DNA of 64,000 bases. Origin: Escherichia coli. GTDB taxonomy: Bacteria; Pseudomonadota; Gammaproteobacteria; Enterobacterales; Enterobacteriaceae. The notes beneath the pieces are model-generated. The model made no database searches and was not told the origin of the DNA. It saw only the letters and a program-made list of their open reading frames with translations. Every line of letters starts with the position of its first letter. Within the stretch, counting starts at the first letter, position 1. The translations under genes and the position numbers were made by a program. This document shows positions 22,654-61,919 of this stretch, piece after piece. The stretch is from NCBI RefSeq assembly GCF_013122565.1, contig NZ_CP053258.1. One strand, written 5' to 3'.

Positions 22654-22729
<76 letters not shown>

Positions 22730-22782
22730 GTTTAAAAGACATCGGCGTCAGCGGATGTCTGGCTGAAAGGCCTGAAGAATTT

Positions 22783-22856
22783 GGCGCGTTAACAAAGCGG
22801 TTATGTAGCGGATTGCAAATCCGTCTAGTCCGGTTCGACTCCGGAACGCGCCTCCA
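22783..22856 (+). tRNA. cysT: tRNA-Cys (anticodon GCA)
   Basis: ggcgcgttaacaaagcggttatgtagcggattGCAaatccgtctagtccggttcgactccggaacgcgcctcca. Confidence 0.95.
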
Positions 22857-22868
22857 CTTTCTTCCCGA

Positions 22869-22955
22869 GCCCGGATGGTGGAATCGGTAGACACAAGGGA
22901 TTTAAAATCCCTCGGCGTTCGCGCTGTGCGGGTTCAAGTCCCGCTCCGGGTACCA
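22869..22955 (+). tRNA. leuZ: tRNA-Leu (anticodon TAA), long variable arm
   Basis: gcccggatggtggaatcggtagacacaagggattTAAaatccctcggcgttcgcgctgtgcgggttcaagtcccgctccgggtacca. Confidence 0.95.
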
Positions 22956-41157: not shown

Positions 41158-41183
41158 TTCTCCCGATTTCCTCAATTGAAATG

Positions 41184-41213
41184 AACCCGATGATCTGCGC
41201 ATCGGGTTTTTTA
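41184..41213 (+). terminator. Rho-independent terminator after cheW
   Basis: Hairpin cccgatgatctgcgcatcggg followed by ttttttatttc. Confidence 0.65.
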
Positions 41214-41243
41214 TTTCAATTTCGCGGCGGGTGGCATCAGCAA

Positions 41244-41270
41244 TAAAGTTTCCCCCCTTCTTGCCGATAA
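41244..41270 (+). promoter_or_regulatory. sigma-28 class 3 promoter of the tar-tap-cheRBYZ operon
   Basis: taaagttt-N11-gccgataa: exact match to both halves of the sigma-28 consensus with 11-nt spacer, ~30 nt upstream of tar. Confidence 0.78.
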
Positions 41271-47600: not shown

Positions 47601-47618
47601 TTTGTATTGCCTGAACTT

Positions 47619-47643
47619 CGGCCTGCGCGATGATGCCAGGCCG
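47619..47643. terminator. Hairpin between convergent cheZ and the inserted nucleotidyltransferase gene
   Basis: Inverted repeat cggcctg...caggccg 19 nt after the cheZ stop; no strong T-run, so weak. Confidence 0.35.
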
Positions 47644-47687
47644 ATAGCAGGGTGGCGAGTATCGTTCAGGGAGTACGTGGAGGATGG

Positions 47688-48440
47688 TTATTTGTAGTTT
47701 GATAATTTTAGATCAGCGAAGCGTGTTTGTTGCGCCAGTAAATTTATCAACGCATTAAATTGTGAACGAGAAAATGACGATGACTGGTAGTGCAGTACAT
47801 CGTAATGATGCCAAACTTCATAACGTTTTTTCGTCAGTTCATGGTGCAAGAAATGACAGAGTTCCGGACCTAAACTCTTTACCTGCTTAGTAAAAATAGT
47901 GCGTAAAATCTTCGTTACCGAACCGCTTGGATTGGGGTTAGTATGAAGAACAAGTTCAAGATGTCTGCGATTTAAGTCGGTCAAATAATTATCTTTACTG
48001 ATAATTTTTTCACTACGTAGATCATAGAGCACGGCATCCCAACTCATTAGCGTAGTGTTTAACAGACTTGATTCATCCTCACAAAATATAAGTTTTTCCC
48101 GAAATGCCCATGTCTCATTGAGGTTCCAGATATCAAATTCGAAGTCGTGATAACGAAAACGGATCCCACCGAACTTATTAAAACGCAGTTGTTTAACGGG
48201 CAATTCAGCCAATGTCCGGAAGAGTTCCTCACGGGAGCGACCGATGACGATATCAAGGTCTGAAGAAAATCCTTCGACGCCAAACAAGCCTAAGTCACGC
48301 ACCATCCCGCCAAAAATCCAGGCCGGACAGGAACAGGCCAGAGTATCAAGTAATACTCTGGCTTTCTTATGCTCATCACTAAGCGTAAAAAAATCGGCGA
48401 TACGCTGTTCAAGCTGTTGGGTGTTTGAGACCACATTCAT
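47688..48440 (-). CDS. Pol-beta-superfamily nucleotidyltransferase (CCA/MNT/SMODS-like fold), function unknown; downstream gene of inserted operon
   Basis: ORF 47688..48440, 250 aa; nucleotidyltransferase signature ...AWIFGGMVRDLGLFGVEGFSSDLDIVIG... (hG[GS]-x9-13-DhDh) with a third acidic residue in ...HDFEFDIWNL...; start overlaps upstream gene by 32 nt; no equivalent gene between cheZ and flhB in K-12 as I recall; AT-rich. Confidence 0.7.
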   Translation of the reverse strand: MNVVSNTQQLEQRIADFFTLSDEHKKARVLLDTLACSCPAWIFGGMVRDLGLFGVEGFSSDLDIVIGRSREELFRTLAELPVKQLRFNKFGGIRFRYHDFEFDIWNLNETWAFREKLIFCEDESSLLNTTLMSWDAVLYDLRSEKIISKDNYLTDLNRRHLELVLHTNPNPSGSVTKILRTIFTKQVKSLGPELCHFLHHELTKKRYEVWHHYDVLHYQSSSFSRSQFNALINLLAQQTRFADLKLSNYK

Positions 48441-49917
48441 ACAGTGATTTTAGCTCATCGTGAAGGCGCATTAAATAACTATCCGTCATGCCTGAGATTG
48501 CGTCGGTAAGCAACTGCGCTTCTTTATAAAGAATAGGGAGTGTATTGGCGGGATCTTCAAACACACGGCGATAATTTTCAGAGATTGTCCCGTAAGCATA
48601 GCGACCAAAGGGAGTATCCGATAGGTATTCTTCACGAGAAACAAAAAGGTTATCTGCAGACGCGGACTCGCGTTCTCCGTCTCGTTCTTTCTTTGTTTTG
48701 TGTCCATGGATGCCAATCCAGAGCATATCCATCAAGTTAGTAATGTAATTAGACCCCCTAAGTTCCAGTTGCAAGACTGAACGATGAAGGTAGCCTCGTG
48801 TTCGGTCGAACATTTTCAGGGCAGTGCAGAGAGCGTGACCTTTGCTTTGCGAGATTAAATCTTTGAACGGGCAGTCACGCTGCATCAGCGTGGGTAATTG
48901 TTCGCGAAAGGCTTCAACTACGGCATTAATCAATGCACTGGTGGCATACACTCTGAACATTTGCATACTGAGTTCATTAATTTCTGCCGGTGAAAGTGCA
49001 TTTCTTTGCTCTTTCCAGGCGTCATTTTTGGCCTCTACAGCTTTAATAACATTTTCAATTACATCGTTCGACTCGGATTGTGACATCAAAAAATCACGCA
49101 AATCCTGGTATGAGGCAAATCCTTTCTTGATGGTATCTTCTGCGTCAAGCACAGAGTAGGCAATATCGTCGCAAGCTTCCATTATCCAGGTAAATGGGTG
49201 GCGGCAACCGGCATCATTACCTGGTACGCCAAGGCCCGTTTGCTGCCAGACATCCATGACAACCTCATGCTCAGAATAGAAAAAACCGTGTTTTTTCCAA
49301 TGTTTGTCCGATGAATATGAAGCTCGGGGATATTTGATCAGTGCAGCCAGCGTGGCATAGGTCAGATTCAGACCAAAGTTATCGTTAATAATTTGTAATT
49401 TGGTAACCAGGCGCAGGGTTTGTGAGTTTCCATCAAATTGCAGAAAGTCGTTATATATTTCGCTGTTTACTTCTTTATCAAGAAGGCCTGGAAGATTTTT
49501 ATTAAACCATGCGCGCATCGCTGCTTCACCTTGATGCCCAAATGGTGGATTACCGAGATCGTGTGCCAGTCCGATCGCTGCTAACAGAGCAGGAACGTCG
49601 CGTTCAACGACAATCCCCGTGGGTATTTCGCCAAAGATGTGTTCCTTCATCTCGAAAGCGAGCCTCATTCCTATTCCGCGAGCAAAGTTTGCTACTTCGT
49701 GAGAATGAGTCAGCCTCGTCCGTATACTGTCATTTTGATCTAACGGGAAAACTTGTGTTTTATCCGCCAGCCGACGAGTTGGCGCAGCAAAAAGTAATCG
49801 GTCGTAATCCCGCTCGATCTCTTGTCTTCCGCGAGCAAGGGGATGTAAAAATTCTATGCTGGTTTTTTTTAGATTATCTTTTCGACGGTTGCAGTTAAGC
49901 AATTGTTGCCATTCCAT
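48409..49917 (-). CDS. Dgt-family dNTP (dGTP) triphosphohydrolase paralogue (HD domain); upstream gene of inserted operon
   Basis: ORF 48409..49917, 502 aa; Dgt hallmark motifs: DKTQVFPLDQNDSIRTRLTHSHEV (HD histidine), GLAHDLGNPPFGHQGE (HD aspartate), FDGNSQTLRLV, HPFTWIMEACDDIAYSVLDAEDTIKKG, LTDAISGMTDSYL; RBS aagg 7-8 nt before ATG; AT-rich. Confidence 0.82.
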   Translation of the reverse strand: MEWQQLLNCNRRKDNLKKTSIEFLHPLARGRQEIERDYDRLLFAAPTRRLADKTQVFPLDQNDSIRTRLTHSHEVANFARGIGMRLAFEMKEHIFGEIPTGIVVERDVPALLAAIGLAHDLGNPPFGHQGEAAMRAWFNKNLPGLLDKEVNSEIYNDFLQFDGNSQTLRLVTKLQIINDNFGLNLTYATLAALIKYPRASYSSDKHWKKHGFFYSEHEVVMDVWQQTGLGVPGNDAGCRHPFTWIMEACDDIAYSVLDAEDTIKKGFASYQDLRDFLMSQSESNDVIENVIKAVEAKNDAWKEQRNALSPAEINELSMQMFRVYATSALINAVVEAFREQLPTLMQRDCPFKDLISQSKGHALCTALKMFDRTRGYLHRSVLQLELRGSNYITNLMDMLWIGIHGHKTKKERDGERESASADNLFVSREEYLSDTPFGRYAYGTISENYRRVFEDPANTLPILYKEAQLLTDAISGMTDSYLMRLHDELKSLYECGLKHPTA

Positions 49918-50153
49918 TTGATCGCCTTTGTAATAATTTAATTATTAGCAAACTAACAGAGAGACGGTGGGCGATTCTATAGGCTAAATGGCTAAATATC
50001 AGAACTGGAAAATGGTTCGCAAAACGTTCTGCAACTGAACCTATTTTTTGCATAAACGTCCTAAATCCCGCCTGTTTTGCCCCTTACTCAAACCATTGAA
50101 CGCTTTGCGCTCTGGCATCATTTACGCTTAATACTCTTTCCAGGATTGGCGAC

Positions 50154-57071: not shown

Positions 57072-57827
<756 letters not shown>

Positions 57828-57873
57828 TTTTTACCGTTGCATCATGTCGCCCAATATGATGCTTGCTCGTACC

Positions 57874-57907
57874 AGGCCCCTGCAATTTCAACAGGGGCCT
57901 TTTTTTA
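57874..57907 (+). terminator. Rho-independent terminator after cutC
   Basis: Hairpin aggcccctgcaatttcaacaggggcct followed by ttttttt. Confidence 0.72.
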
Positions 57908-61820: not shown

Positions 61821-61919
61821 GCCTGATGCGCTATGCTTATCAGGCCTACATAGTCCCTGCAATATATTGAATTAGCAAGGTTTTGTAGGCCGGATAAGGC
61901 GTTCACGCCGCATCCGGCA
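61821..61919. repeat. BIME: two inverted REP units
   Basis: gcctgatgcgctatgcttatcaggcctaca (61821..61850) and tgtaggccggataaggcgttcacgccgcatccggca (61884..61919); near-identical to the pair downstream of fliC. Confidence 0.8.

Follow-up and report, generated by a model that had tools for sequence, protein, structure and literature searches.

The 32-nt overlap that we analysed here is very probably the cloA-cloB junction of a Clover defence operon, carried by a small islet of the accessory genome that lies between cheZ and flhB. The window, by which we mean the whole stretch of 64,000 nucleotides of Escherichia coli DNA that was analysed, carries on its minus strand a gene for a dNTPase followed by one for a nucleotidyltransferase. 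Judging from the sequence, translational coupling of the two genes is plausible. The features to which the argument refers are the following.

47615..50053, no strand assigned: Clover islet of 2,439 bp between cheZ and flhB, delimited by BLASTN against the K-12 cheZ-flhB intergenic region
47688..48440, minus strand: cloB, a Pol-beta-superfamily nucleotidyltransferase of 250 aa and predicted p3diT synthase that would restrain CloA, assigned by homology to H5 CloB
48409..49917, minus strand: cloA, the probable dTTP-activated dGTPase effector of the Clover system, 502 aa, assigned by family, PDB and residue matches
48409..48440, minus strand: cloA/cloB overlap, in which CloA ends with YECGLKHPTA* and CloB begins with MNVVSNTQQL(E)
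48438..48440, minus strand: most likely cloB start ATG, placed inside Tyr-Glu codons of CloA (T ATG AA) and unchanged across 11 enterobacterial loci
48432..48434, minus strand: alternative in-frame GTG, codon 3 of cloB, which would leave an overlap of 26 nt
48450..48452, minus strand: TAA in the cloB frame, 12 nt 5' of the cloB ATG, made by the CloA Leu-Lys codons CTA AAA, which shuts the frame upstream
49925..49929, minus strand: moderate SD-like AAAGG, 7 nt 5' of the cloA ATG (-4.2 kcal/mol)
49950..49958, minus strand: candidate extended -10 promoter element TGtTAGTTT (pattern TGnTAnnnT), proposed because 7 divergent loci have the pattern at the corresponding position

The upstream protein is a dGTPase by family: it scores 285 bits against TIGR01353 dGTP_triPase (cutoff 152) and matches the PADLOC dGTPase model at 5e-71. 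Among the NCBIfam dGTPase models scored, only the subfamily TIGR01353 passes its cutoff; the protein stays below those of NF041026 (182 vs 400 bits), NF003701 (153 vs 383 bits), NF003429 (271 vs 405 bits) and NF002205, the PRK01096-type dGTPase (358 vs 439 bits). Salmonella CloA (PDB 9p8s-9p8v) is matched with 636 bits and 66% identity (9p8s), and E. coli H5 CloA with 60% identity. All six catalytic residues are kept, that is, the metal/HD residues H71, H119, D120 and D250 and the HE dyad H128/E131 (H69, H117, D118, D242, H126 and E129 in the Salmonella reference).

The same holds for the nine residues of the dTTP activator pocket, which are all identical: R49, D63, Q175, K264, S446, N448, A473, T478 and Y481, corresponding to R47, D61, Q172, K256, S418, N420, A444, T449 and Y452 in Salmonella (PMC12265719). 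In the p3diT inhibitor pocket, defined in Salmonella by T25, R29, R34, D37, R38, F41, N75, N181, Q311 and R314 (PMC12265719), nine of the ten positions are identical and the lone change is T25 to L27. The three arginines of the published 3RA mutant are all kept (R31, R36 and R40). At the residues highlighted in that paper the changes in the window protein are T25L, Q427D and H263Q, where H263, a residue of the octamer interface, corresponds to Q271. There is also an insertion of about 20 aa in the C-terminal bundle.

The nucleotidyltransferase was identified through the PDB match of its partner dGTPase together with the literature, and then by direct comparison with H5 CloB. Its sequence has no match in Pfam, PADLOC or NCBIfam (E <= 0.01), nor among PDB sequences (E <= 10). 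Compared directly with the experimentally tested E. coli H5 CloB, it shows 41% identity (E = 2e-54), and D61-L-D63 aligns to D71-I-D73 of H5, in the active site [D/E]h[D/E]...h[D/E]h. Across 32 CloB homologues G44, G45, R48, D49, D61, D63 and D103 are invariant, and R13, I14, F18, R28, A35 and W41-F43 are conserved in at least 90%. An AlphaFold model of the protein has a pLDDT of 92, and the N-terminal conserved stretch is predicted as two confident helices with a pLDDT of 93-97. The best PDB folds for this model are class II CCA-adding and A-adding enzymes.

The Clover anti-phage system (CloA/CloB) has been described by Yamaguchi et al. in a bioRxiv preprint of 2025 for Salmonella enterica SA20044414 and E. 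coli H5 (PMC12265719). CloA is a dTTP-activated dGTPase that assembles as an octamer, the 'four-leaf clover', and CloB is a Pol-beta nucleotidyltransferase making an inhibitory dinucleotide, p3diT, which prevents CloA toxicity; the two were expressed as separate active proteins, and CloA was purified (PMC12265719). Protection against T5-like phages and toxicity of CloA without active CloB have been reported for both the Salmonella and the E. coli H5 operons, and inactivation of CloB turns the operon toxic, with a fitness loss of more than 10,000-fold (PMC12265719). The H5 system was cloned as a native operon of 2,200 bp, which is non-toxic unless CloB is mutated (PMC12265719). About 650 homologues have been published for CloB. 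The word 'overlap' occurs 0 times in this preprint, and the junction is not remarked on.

By homology, the window pair would work in the same way. Rising dTTP in the course of infection with a T5-like phage would switch CloA on, and active CloA would deplete dGTP, which would block phage DNA replication. CloB would join two dTTP to pppdTpdT (p3diT). This dinucleotide would then sit in an allosteric pocket of CloA that adjoins the dTTP site and raise the activation threshold, so that uninfected cells would be spared. The synthesis of p3diT by the window subtype and its phage specificity are what we infer from the published relatives. That CloB would make p3diT, and that p3diT would inhibit CloA, is suggested by the conserved pocket of CloA and by the homology of CloB to its H5 counterpart. 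The initial annotation had guessed at an effector/regulator pair, and this guess is borne out, as the dNTPase and the nucleotidyltransferase are functionally linked as CloA and CloB. Its other term, a toxin/immunity pair, applies only loosely: CloB makes a small-molecule inhibitor and does not neutralise CloA as a protein. Since inactivation of CloB makes the operon toxic, an obligatory co-expression of cloA and cloB makes biological sense.

We then come to the geometry of the junction. Reading both ORFs on the minus strand gives an out-of-frame overlap of 32 nt (48409..48440), as had been claimed at the outset; the ORF list agrees, and the PGAP coordinates for both genes in E. coli ST648 are identical to the ORFs of the window. 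The cloA ORF ends in frame with ...gag cta aaa tca ctg tat gaa tgt ggt ctc aaa cac cca aca gct TGA, the stop codon occupying 48411..48409, and cloB begins with ATG aat GTG gtc tca..., the ATG occupying 48440..48438. As 32 mod 3 is 2, the two frames differ. The alternative in-frame GTG that had been pointed out is found as well, at 48434..48432. Upstream of the TAA in the cloB frame there is a further in-frame ATG (48458..48456), which matches the start used by the H5/Salmonella subtype.

Ahead of the L-x-x-R-I-x-x-F motif (R13, I14, F18), which is conserved in the family, the cloB ORF offers two start codons only, its ATG (codon 1) and the GTG (codon 3), and from the upstream in-frame stop to the conserved N-terminal motif codon 1 is the sole ATG. 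The next methionine of CloB is M46, within the catalytic GGMxRD motif. A cloB start outside the overlap is thus impossible, because the in-frame TAA lies upstream and no later start codon occurs before M46. Long gene overlaps are often annotation errors. This is also implied by the rarity of long overlaps in published work (PMC10666635, PMC12548453), and the initial annotation had itself named, as the case to look out for, a nucleotidyltransferase that initiates 3' of the overlap from its own RBS. We consider such a mis-annotated start extremely improbable: after codon 3 no in-frame ATG, GTG or TTG occurs until M46, which lies in the invariant GGMxRD, the residues from R13 to W41-F43, conserved in at least 90% and placed in confident helices, would be lost, and gene callers give the same start in several genomes. 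A downstream start was therefore rejected on the absence of start codons before M46.

That cloB starts at the GTG, so that the overlap would be 26 nt and not 32, is unlikely. A second ATG stands at the GTG position in most sister subtypes (MNMKVV...), as seen in the alignment, which speaks for this start. On the other hand, two related loci (L003 and L004) have ACG there, so a start at this codon is not universal and only the first ATG is. Furthermore, GTG is weaker than ATG as a start codon, neither of the two has an SD, and the first ATG is invariant, though perhaps partly due to its CloA Tyr-Glu codons. An out-of-frame overlap of this length could also let ribosomes shift frame by programmed frameshifting within the overlap and make a CloA-CloB fusion protein. 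This is hardly conceivable here and was rejected: there is no slippery heptamer in 48409..48452, the TAA 12 nt 5' of the ATG closes the cloB frame, the junctions of alphaproteobacterial homologues span only 0-4 nt, and the published CloA and CloB were expressed as separate active proteins (PMC12265719).

The junction was compared with those of related loci. Of the 37 genome loci that a search with a CloB profile found, practically all have a cloA homologue next to cloB on its 5' side, in the same orientation. In about 35 intact related loci from three proteobacterial classes, cloB always overlaps or abuts cloA, with an overlap of -1 to 50 nt. The lengths are 32, 38, 44-47 and 50 nt in Enterobacteriaceae and 11-26 nt in other Gammaproteobacteria, and in most Alphaproteobacteria the overlap is 0, 1 or 4 nt. 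The 32 nt of the overlap have 94-100% nucleotide identity to two relatives (L039 and L040), versus 70-80% in the flanks. Among these three sequences the overlap contains two substitutions, both synonymous in cloB and non-synonymous in cloA; a codon-level comparison in the other subgroups found the CloA tail and the CloB head to be conserved about equally. The arrangement goes beyond chance, because the ATG is invariant in 11 loci, the overlap is more conserved than its flanks, and the intact relatives all overlap or abut. The length of the overlap is not the conserved feature, however, since in close relatives the cloA stop moves (overlaps of 29, 32, 38 and 50 nt) while the cloB ATG stays fixed.

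To compare initiation signals, we took the best anti-SD duplex energy upstream of each start. Neither the ATG nor the GTG of cloB has an effective SD: the best duplex has only -1.9 kcal/mol and lies 12-18 nt away, and the claim that the ATG lacks a recognisable Shine-Dalgarno sequence thus stands. The dNTPase, on the other hand, had been credited with a good RBS. With -4.2 kcal/mol (AAAGG, spacing of 7 nt) the cloA site is moderate and weaker than those of cheR, cheB, cheY, cheZ and flhB (-4.9 to -7.4 kcal/mol). No SD was found at gammaproteobacterial cloB starts; for most of them the anti-SD energy reaches -2.4 kcal/mol at best. In E. coli H5, the tested operon also has an annotated overlap (47 nt) and no SD (+0.6 kcal/mol). 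Because this operon is non-toxic unless CloB is mutated, such a junction gives functional CloB in E. coli.

We also looked for a hairpin that would mask the cloB start. The 120-nt fold has an MFE of -21.3, compared with a mean of -22.2 for shuffled sequences (z = 0.29). As the RNA of the junction is no more structured than shuffled RNA, a start that is masked and then unfolded by upstream ribosomes is not indicated. By sliding-window and unpaired-probability measures, the start region is slightly more open than the operon average (71st-76th percentile); its AU content is 60% over the 40 nt that surround the start codon, with a mean unpaired probability of 0.50 against a background of 0.44.

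As to transcription, a scan for consensus promoters gave a site different from the candidate extended -10 element, namely CTGATA-17-TAGAAT at 50002..49974. A scan for intrinsic terminators downstream of cloB on the minus strand found none. Between the convergent cheZ and cloB there is a GGCCTG...CAGGCC hairpin without a T-run. A 52-aa ORF (49895..50053), which begins exactly at the edge of the islet and overlaps the start of cloA, was set aside as a chance ORF; it is not conserved in L039, L040 and L008.

How, then, is cloB translated? We lean towards the reading that cloB is mainly initiated by ribosomes coming from cloA, either still engaged in its translation or just done with it. The missing SD and the conserved tight junction lend this reading indirect support. 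With both genes on one mRNA, the inhibitor synthase would be made whenever the toxic effector is made, and the output of coupled CloB would be lower, at a catalytic level. The architecture had been called typical of tightly co-expressed pairs, but 32 nt is not typical: coupling usually goes with motifs of -4, -1 and -8 nt, and of the gene pairs that overlap more than 80% do so by less than 30 bp (PMC12548453; PMC10666635). Termination-reinitiation is expected where the start codon overlaps the stop or is found about -8 to +10 nt from it (ATGA, TGATG and similar; PMC10666635). At 32 nt the window junction falls outside this range, whereas the alphaproteobacterial homologues, at 0, 1 and 4 nt, fall within it. 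In native E. coli gene pairs a distance of 14 nt costs reinitiation 40-80% of its efficiency, and at 38 nt hardly any is left (PMC10666635). A precedent for long backward reinitiation is the coat-lysis pair of phage fr with its 34-nt overlap (Adhin and van Duin 1990, as related in PMC10666635).

Alternatively, the pair may be Clover with cloB initiated independently and without real coupling. The 30S subunit would load directly, in the manner of SD-less starts that depend on ribosomal protein S1, on an AU-rich and weakly structured start that lacks an SD, and the overlap would be a by-product of an ATG that lies in conserved C-terminal codons of CloA and of the drift of the cloA stop. We hold this to be possible, though rather unlikely. 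It agrees with the lack of occluding RNA structure at the start, with the AU content and the unpaired probability given above, with overlaps that vary from 29 to 50 nt in close relatives around a fixed ATG, and with the steep published dependence of reinitiation on distance (PMC10666635). On the other hand, in about 35 of about 35 intact loci the cloA stop and the cloB start stay within the range of -1 to 50 nt, classical coupling motifs of 0, 1 and 4 nt occur in many Alphaproteobacteria, the start region is not exceptionally open, and tying CloB synthesis to that of CloA has a strong functional rationale, as the loss of CloB activity is toxic. The drift in overlap length itself can be explained equally well by neutral change in a dispensable CloA tail and by selection for coupling.

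A stronger form of coupling can be proposed only tentatively. Here, the long overlap without an SD, as conserved in gammaproteobacterial Clover operons, would be a dedicated interlock, in which the ribosomes that initiate cloB would all come from cloA translation and would reinitiate backwards over 11-50 nt, as in the phage fr pair; this would fix a low ratio of CloB to CloA, hence the level of p3diT and the dTTP threshold at which the system fires. If this were true, the drift of the cloA stop (29, 32, 38 and 50 nt) would represent an evolutionary tuning of immune sensitivity. In any case the junction, overlapping or abutting throughout and without an SD in Gammaproteobacteria, bears on the question how a toxic effector is never made without the synthase of its inhibitor.

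The islet stands where E. coli K-12 has an 87-bp REP-like stretch, and it was found in 106 of 5,426 complete E. coli genomes (about 2%). Carriers include clinical ST648 strains. The current annotation of the locus gives only 'dgt' and 'hypothetical protein'. We considered whether the window operon is the published Clover of E. coli H5 and rejected this, as H5 has a Salmonella-like subtype at selC. By the conservation of both proteins, the window locus is a member of the already published Clover system and a distinct subtype of it. It represents a second Clover subtype in E. coli, commoner than the H5 type (about 106 genomes vs 8 for the characterised type), and the cheZ-flhB junction is a recurrent home of divergent Clover alleles across Enterobacteriaceae. 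With the PADLOC models of 2023 the locus would show up as a lone dGTPase; the Clover label would close this gap in annotation and give a probable mechanism to two linked genes that about 2% of complete E. coli genomes have. A known system is refined in this way, and no new principle is established.

Compared with the Clover systems of Salmonella and H5, the window operon has the same plan of two overlapping genes on one strand, the dGTPase followed by the nucleotidyltransferase, and it likewise belongs to the accessory genome (the window type in about 2% of E. coli genomes). For CloA the identity is 60-66%, and its catalytic, dTTP and p3diT sites are conserved; CloB is homologous (41%) and keeps the catalytic DxD and the third Asp. 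The differences are in length (502 vs 471 aa for CloA, with insertions of about 5 and 20 aa, and 250 vs 276 aa for CloB) and in the junction, where Tyr-Glu codons of CloA, not His-Asp-Glu codons, contain the cloB ATG and the overlap is 32 nt as against 44-47 nt. Furthermore, the H5 copy is found in a selC/integrase island, whereas the window copy lies between cheZ and flhB with no integrase.

Among other dGTPases, the single-gene anti-phage enzyme of Shewanella putrefaciens (SpdGTPase; Tal et al. 2022, PDB 9p8w, NF041026) shares the HD-domain dGTP triphosphohydrolase fold and the depletion of dGTP, and the PADLOC 'dGTPase' model matches the window protein. However, window CloA reaches only 182 of the 400 bits that the NF041026 cutoff demands and 89 bits against 9p8w, and SpdGTPase is a constitutively active hexamer that acts without a partner nucleotidyltransferase and has T7 rather than T5 as its preferred target (PMC12265719). 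The housekeeping Dgt of E. coli (PDB 4x9e/4xds, NF003429) belongs to the same dGTPase superfamily and has a similar length (505 aa), the HD motif and the HE dyad. The window protein differs from it in score (271 bits vs the cutoff of 405, and 133 bits vs 4x9e), in being encoded by an accessory and not a core gene, and in its pairing with cloB.

For CloB, the predicted fold matches the head and neck of class II CCA-adding, A-adding and poly(A) polymerase enzymes (PolyA_pol head; PDB 3h3a, 4wby, 1vfg and 1miv; Foldseek E of 1e-8 to 1e-5, query-normalised TM of about 0.5-0.59), and the GGxxRD...DxD signature is shared. Template-independent addition of a nucleotide to a 3'-OH, as in these enzymes, fits the synthesis of linear pppdTpdT. 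On the other hand, CloB is half their size and lacks the body and tail domains that bind tRNA, the identity is 14-20% with no match to Pfam PF01743 at E <= 0.01, and the substrate of CloB is dTTP and not tRNA (PMC12265719).

The coat-lysis junction of phage fr, as far as it is related in PMC10666635, likewise has a long out-of-frame overlap (34 nt), and its downstream start needs ribosomes terminating upstream; the genes are unrelated, and the fr start is masked by RNA structure whereas the cloB start is not, so the analogy is a mechanistic one only. Finally, Hailong and Panoptes/MISS follow the same logic as Clover, in that a signal made constitutively by a Pol-beta nucleotidyltransferase keeps an effector off until infection, a comparison drawn by the authors of the Clover preprint (PMC12265719). 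Their signals (oligo-dA and 2'3'-c-di-AMP) and their effectors are different, and it is by this logic that they are likened to Clover.

The two genes of the operon, cloA and cloB, share 32 nt (48409..48440, minus strand) that are read in two different frames, as seen both in the sequence and in the ORF list. The junction consists of the following features:

49917..48409, minus strand: cloA ORF (dGTPase gene), 502 aa, 3' end ...tat gaa tgt ggt ctc aaa cac cca aca gct TGA
48440..47688, minus strand: cloB ORF (nucleotidyltransferase gene), 250 aa, 5' end ATG aat GTG gtc tca...
48434..48432, minus strand: alternative cloB start GTG, in frame, codon 3

In E. coli ST648, PGAP predicts the same two CDSs with an identical 32-nt overlap. 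The initial annotation was right in all its coordinates.

For the ATG or GTG of cloB, the best pairing with the 16S anti-Shine-Dalgarno (anti-SD) sequence in the 22 nt scanned upstream reaches -1.9 kcal/mol, with 12-18 nt of spacing. In effect, this start therefore has no SD, as had been noted from the sequence. The "good" RBS ascribed to the dNTPase does exist (AAAGG 7 nt before the ATG, -4.2 kcal/mol), but it is moderate and weaker than those of cheR, cheB, cheY, cheZ and flhB in the window (-4.9 to -7.4 kcal/mol). A cloB start outside the overlap can be excluded: a TAA closes its frame 12 nt before the ATG, and past codon 3 the frame has no ATG, GTG or TTG until M46 (within the invariant GGMxRD motif). 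In addition, the N-terminal residues R13, I14, F18, R28, A35 and W41-F43 show at least 90% conservation among 32 homologues and lie in confident helices of the structural model. The cloB frame also contains, 18 nt before the cloB ATG, a mini-ORF of two codons (ATG AGC TAA; 48450..48458, minus strand). The CloA Leu-Lys codons CTA AAA (TTA AAA in Erwinia) give rise to its TAA; Atlantibacter subterranea (locus L009) has CTT for Leu and an open cloB frame upstream.

The idea that the genes form an effector/regulator pair proved correct, and homology identifies them as CloA and CloB of Clover, an anti-phage system described by Yamaguchi et al. (bioRxiv 2025, PMC12265719). According to these authors, CloA alone is an inactive dGTPase; its specific activator is dTTP, whose level goes up when T5-like phages infect the cell. 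CloB, a Pol-beta-superfamily nucleotidyltransferase, makes 5'-triphosphothymidyl-3'5'-thymidine (p3diT), which binds an allosteric CloA pocket beside that for dTTP and increases the threshold of activation. Mutating three arginines of this pocket abolishes inhibition, and with a mutated CloB active site the operon becomes toxic (>10,000-fold fitness loss) (PMC12265719).

The window CloA matches TIGR01353 (dGTP triphosphohydrolase; 285 bits, cutoff 152) and the PADLOC dGTPase model (5e-71), and falls below the curated cutoffs for housekeeping Dgt (271 vs 405), the PRK01096 type (358 vs 439) and the single-gene anti-phage dGTPase (182 vs 400). Among PDB sequences it matches 9p8s-9p8v ("dNTP triphosphohydrolase") with 636 bits. 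It is 66% identical to the Salmonella CloA and 60% to that of E. coli H5. The residues named in PMC12265719 were mapped through the PDB-match alignment, and the numbering is valid, since H69, H117, D118, D242, H126 and E129 land on the expected residue types. All six catalytic residues (mapped from Salmonella CloA) and all nine dTTP-pocket residues are kept, as are 9 of the 10 p3diT-pocket residues, including the three inhibition-critical arginines. Compared with the Salmonella and H5 proteins there are insertions of about 5 aa (~231-235, about 49213..49227) and about 20 aa (~409-433, about 48620..48695). The longer one falls within the C-terminal helical bundle, which governs oligomerisation; we also see the substitutions H263Q (tetramer interface), T25L (p3diT pocket) and Q427D (switch).

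For the window CloB, no sequence match was found in Pfam, PADLOC, NCBIfam or the PDB. It is 41% identical to H5 CloB (E = 2e-54), and its D61/D63 align with the published catalytic D71/D73. Its AlphaFold model (pLDDT 92) resembles, by Foldseek, the head and neck of class II CCA-adding and A-adding enzymes (E about 1e-8). These enzymes add nucleotides to a 3'-OH without a template, and the predicted fold would thus fit the synthesis of a linear dinucleotide.

When 100,044 species-representative genomes were scanned with a profile, 37 CloB loci came up, spread over Gamma-, Beta- and Alphaproteobacteria and MAGs. At practically every one, the gene immediately before cloB, in the same orientation, is a cloA homologue. 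The survey of the junction covers these 37 loci, which are related by descent, and a few metagenomic ones. The overlaps listed here span the distance between the cloA stop and candidate cloB starts, which in the other loci were deduced from ORF structure and alignment:

Window type: 32 nt
Erwinia, Enterobacter, Atlantibacter hermannii: 38 (or 32) nt
Pseudescherichia: 50 (or 44) nt
Salmonella/H5 type: 44-47 nt
Aeromonas, Photobacterium, Pseudomonas, other Gammaproteobacteria: 11-26 nt
Variovorax: 17 nt
Most Alphaproteobacteria: 0, 1 or 4 nt (-1 in one locus, 17 in another)

No SD was found at the gammaproteobacterial cloB junctions (mostly no stronger than -2.4 kcal/mol), nor at the tested H5 junction (+0.6 kcal/mol); the SD-less junction is a family trait. 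The Clover publication (PMC12265719) makes no mention of the overlapped SD-less start. In 11 aligned enterobacterial loci the cloB ATG is invariant inside the CloA Tyr-Glu codons (T ATG AA), and the cloA stop shifts, giving overlaps of 29, 32, 38 and 50 nt. Among the window and loci L039 and L040, the overlap is the best-conserved stretch near the junction (94-100% identity vs 80% upstream and about 70% downstream).

Does this mean that cloB is translationally coupled to cloA? The main rival is that cloB is initiated independently, without an SD. In favour of coupling, the start has no SD, the tight junction is found throughout the family, and distant relatives carry classical coupling motifs. 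Moreover, CloA without active CloB is toxic (PMC12265719), and the native H5 and Salmonella operons, whose overlapped starts equally lack an SD, make enough CloB in E. coli to stop this toxicity. On the other hand, the overlap length is not conserved. The architecture had been called typical of coupled pairs, which is overstated: such pairs usually stand at -4, -1 or -8 nt, and more than 80% of overlapping pairs share <30 bp (PMC12548453; PMC10666635), as against 32 nt here. In native E. coli pairs reinitiation is down by 40-80% at 14 nt and nearly gone at 38 nt, and only the phage fr coat-lysis pair offers a classical precedent for stepping back about 34 nt (PMC10666635). No RNA structure masking the cloB start was found (z = 0.29), and the accessibility of this site is little above the mean for the operon. 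Weighing these points, we therefore regard coupling as plausible, with the balance tipping slightly in its favour.

The operon lies in the E. coli region tap-cheR-cheB-cheY-cheZ / flhB-flhA, on an islet (47615..50053, 2,439 bp) that takes the place of an 87-bp REP-like stretch in the K-12 cheZ-flhB spacer. The islet is found in 106 of 5,426 complete E. coli genomes, H5-type Clover in 8; since the best match is only 98.8% identical, the exact window allele is absent from this set. The cheZ-adjacent site also holds divergent Clover (CloB 37-73% identical) in Enterobacter, Pseudescherichia, Atlantibacter, Pluralibacter, Buttiauxella and metagenomic enterobacterial contigs. The cheZ(-flhB) junction carries Clover in at least six enterobacterial genera (loci L005-L010, L012, L015, L036, L039, L040) and only the 87-bp spacer in 98% of E. 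coli. This points either to an integrase-less integration/replacement hotspot or to an ancient locus that is frequently lost.

Some Clover copies are decayed (loci L022, L015 and L036; protein P0011). In a gammaproteobacterial MAG (L022, 814..1843), about 52 N-terminal CloA residues are joined to the C-terminal tail "...SLYDELKQYY" in an 89-aa ORF that retains a 32-nt overlap with an intact cloB; here the effector has thus been deleted and the regulator kept. Buttiauxella loci have cloA as fragments, and Shigella flexneri entries a partial CloB (160 aa).

Further features of the operon flanks and the window, with Rfam matches taken at the gathering threshold, are:

49958..49950, minus strand: candidate extended -10 (TGnTAnnnT; tgtTAGTTT), about 35 nt upstream of the cloA ATG
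49895..50053, minus strand: 52-aa ORF, AGGA 5 nt before its ATG, starting exactly at the islet boundary and ending 20 nt inside cloA
57599..57906: MicL sRNA (Rfam)
41177..41254: C0465 RNA (Rfam)
22654..22952: three-tRNA cluster (Rfam)
61842..61884: ES036 (CssrF) sRNA (Rfam)

The four Rfam features are ordinary for E. coli. The TGnTAnnnT motif is conserved in 7 divergent loci and may be the promoter element of the operon; a consensus promoter scan gave another site (CTGATA-17-TAGAAT, 50002..49974). The 52-aa ORF is not kept as an ORF in loci L039, L040 and L008 and is therefore probably due to chance. In the region of 47615..47687, the convergent cheZ and cloB are 87 nt apart and have between them a hairpin (GGCCTG-N11-CAGGCC) that lacks a T-run whichever strand is read; a terminator scan found no intrinsic terminator for cloB.

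The H5 operon of PMC12265719 was found at NZ_CP010169, in a selC/integrase island, with an annotated CloA of 471 aa, CloB of 276 aa and a 47-nt overlap. Its neighbours (L045, 1434..9633; tRNA-Sec/selC) include a 7-cyano-7-deazaguanine synthase-like gene, a PfkB kinase, an 8-oxoguanine DNA glycosylase and a DNA adenine methylase, which may be another DNA-modification or defence module.

In summary, the window pair is a member of the Clover system, which was already known from its 2025 description. The assignment follows from the homology of both proteins, the kept CloA residues and the catalytic aspartates and fold of CloB, and by sequence comparison the subtype is other than the two assayed. 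Compared with the tested versions, CloA (502 aa) is longer and has the two insertions given above, CloB (250 aa vs 276 aa in H5) is shorter, and the genomic site (cheZ-flhB) is a different one. The cloB start also differs in position: in H5 and Salmonella it lies 18 nt further upstream, in His-Asp-Glu codons, and the corresponding ATG in the window is in frame, but closed by the TAA from the Leu-Lys codons.
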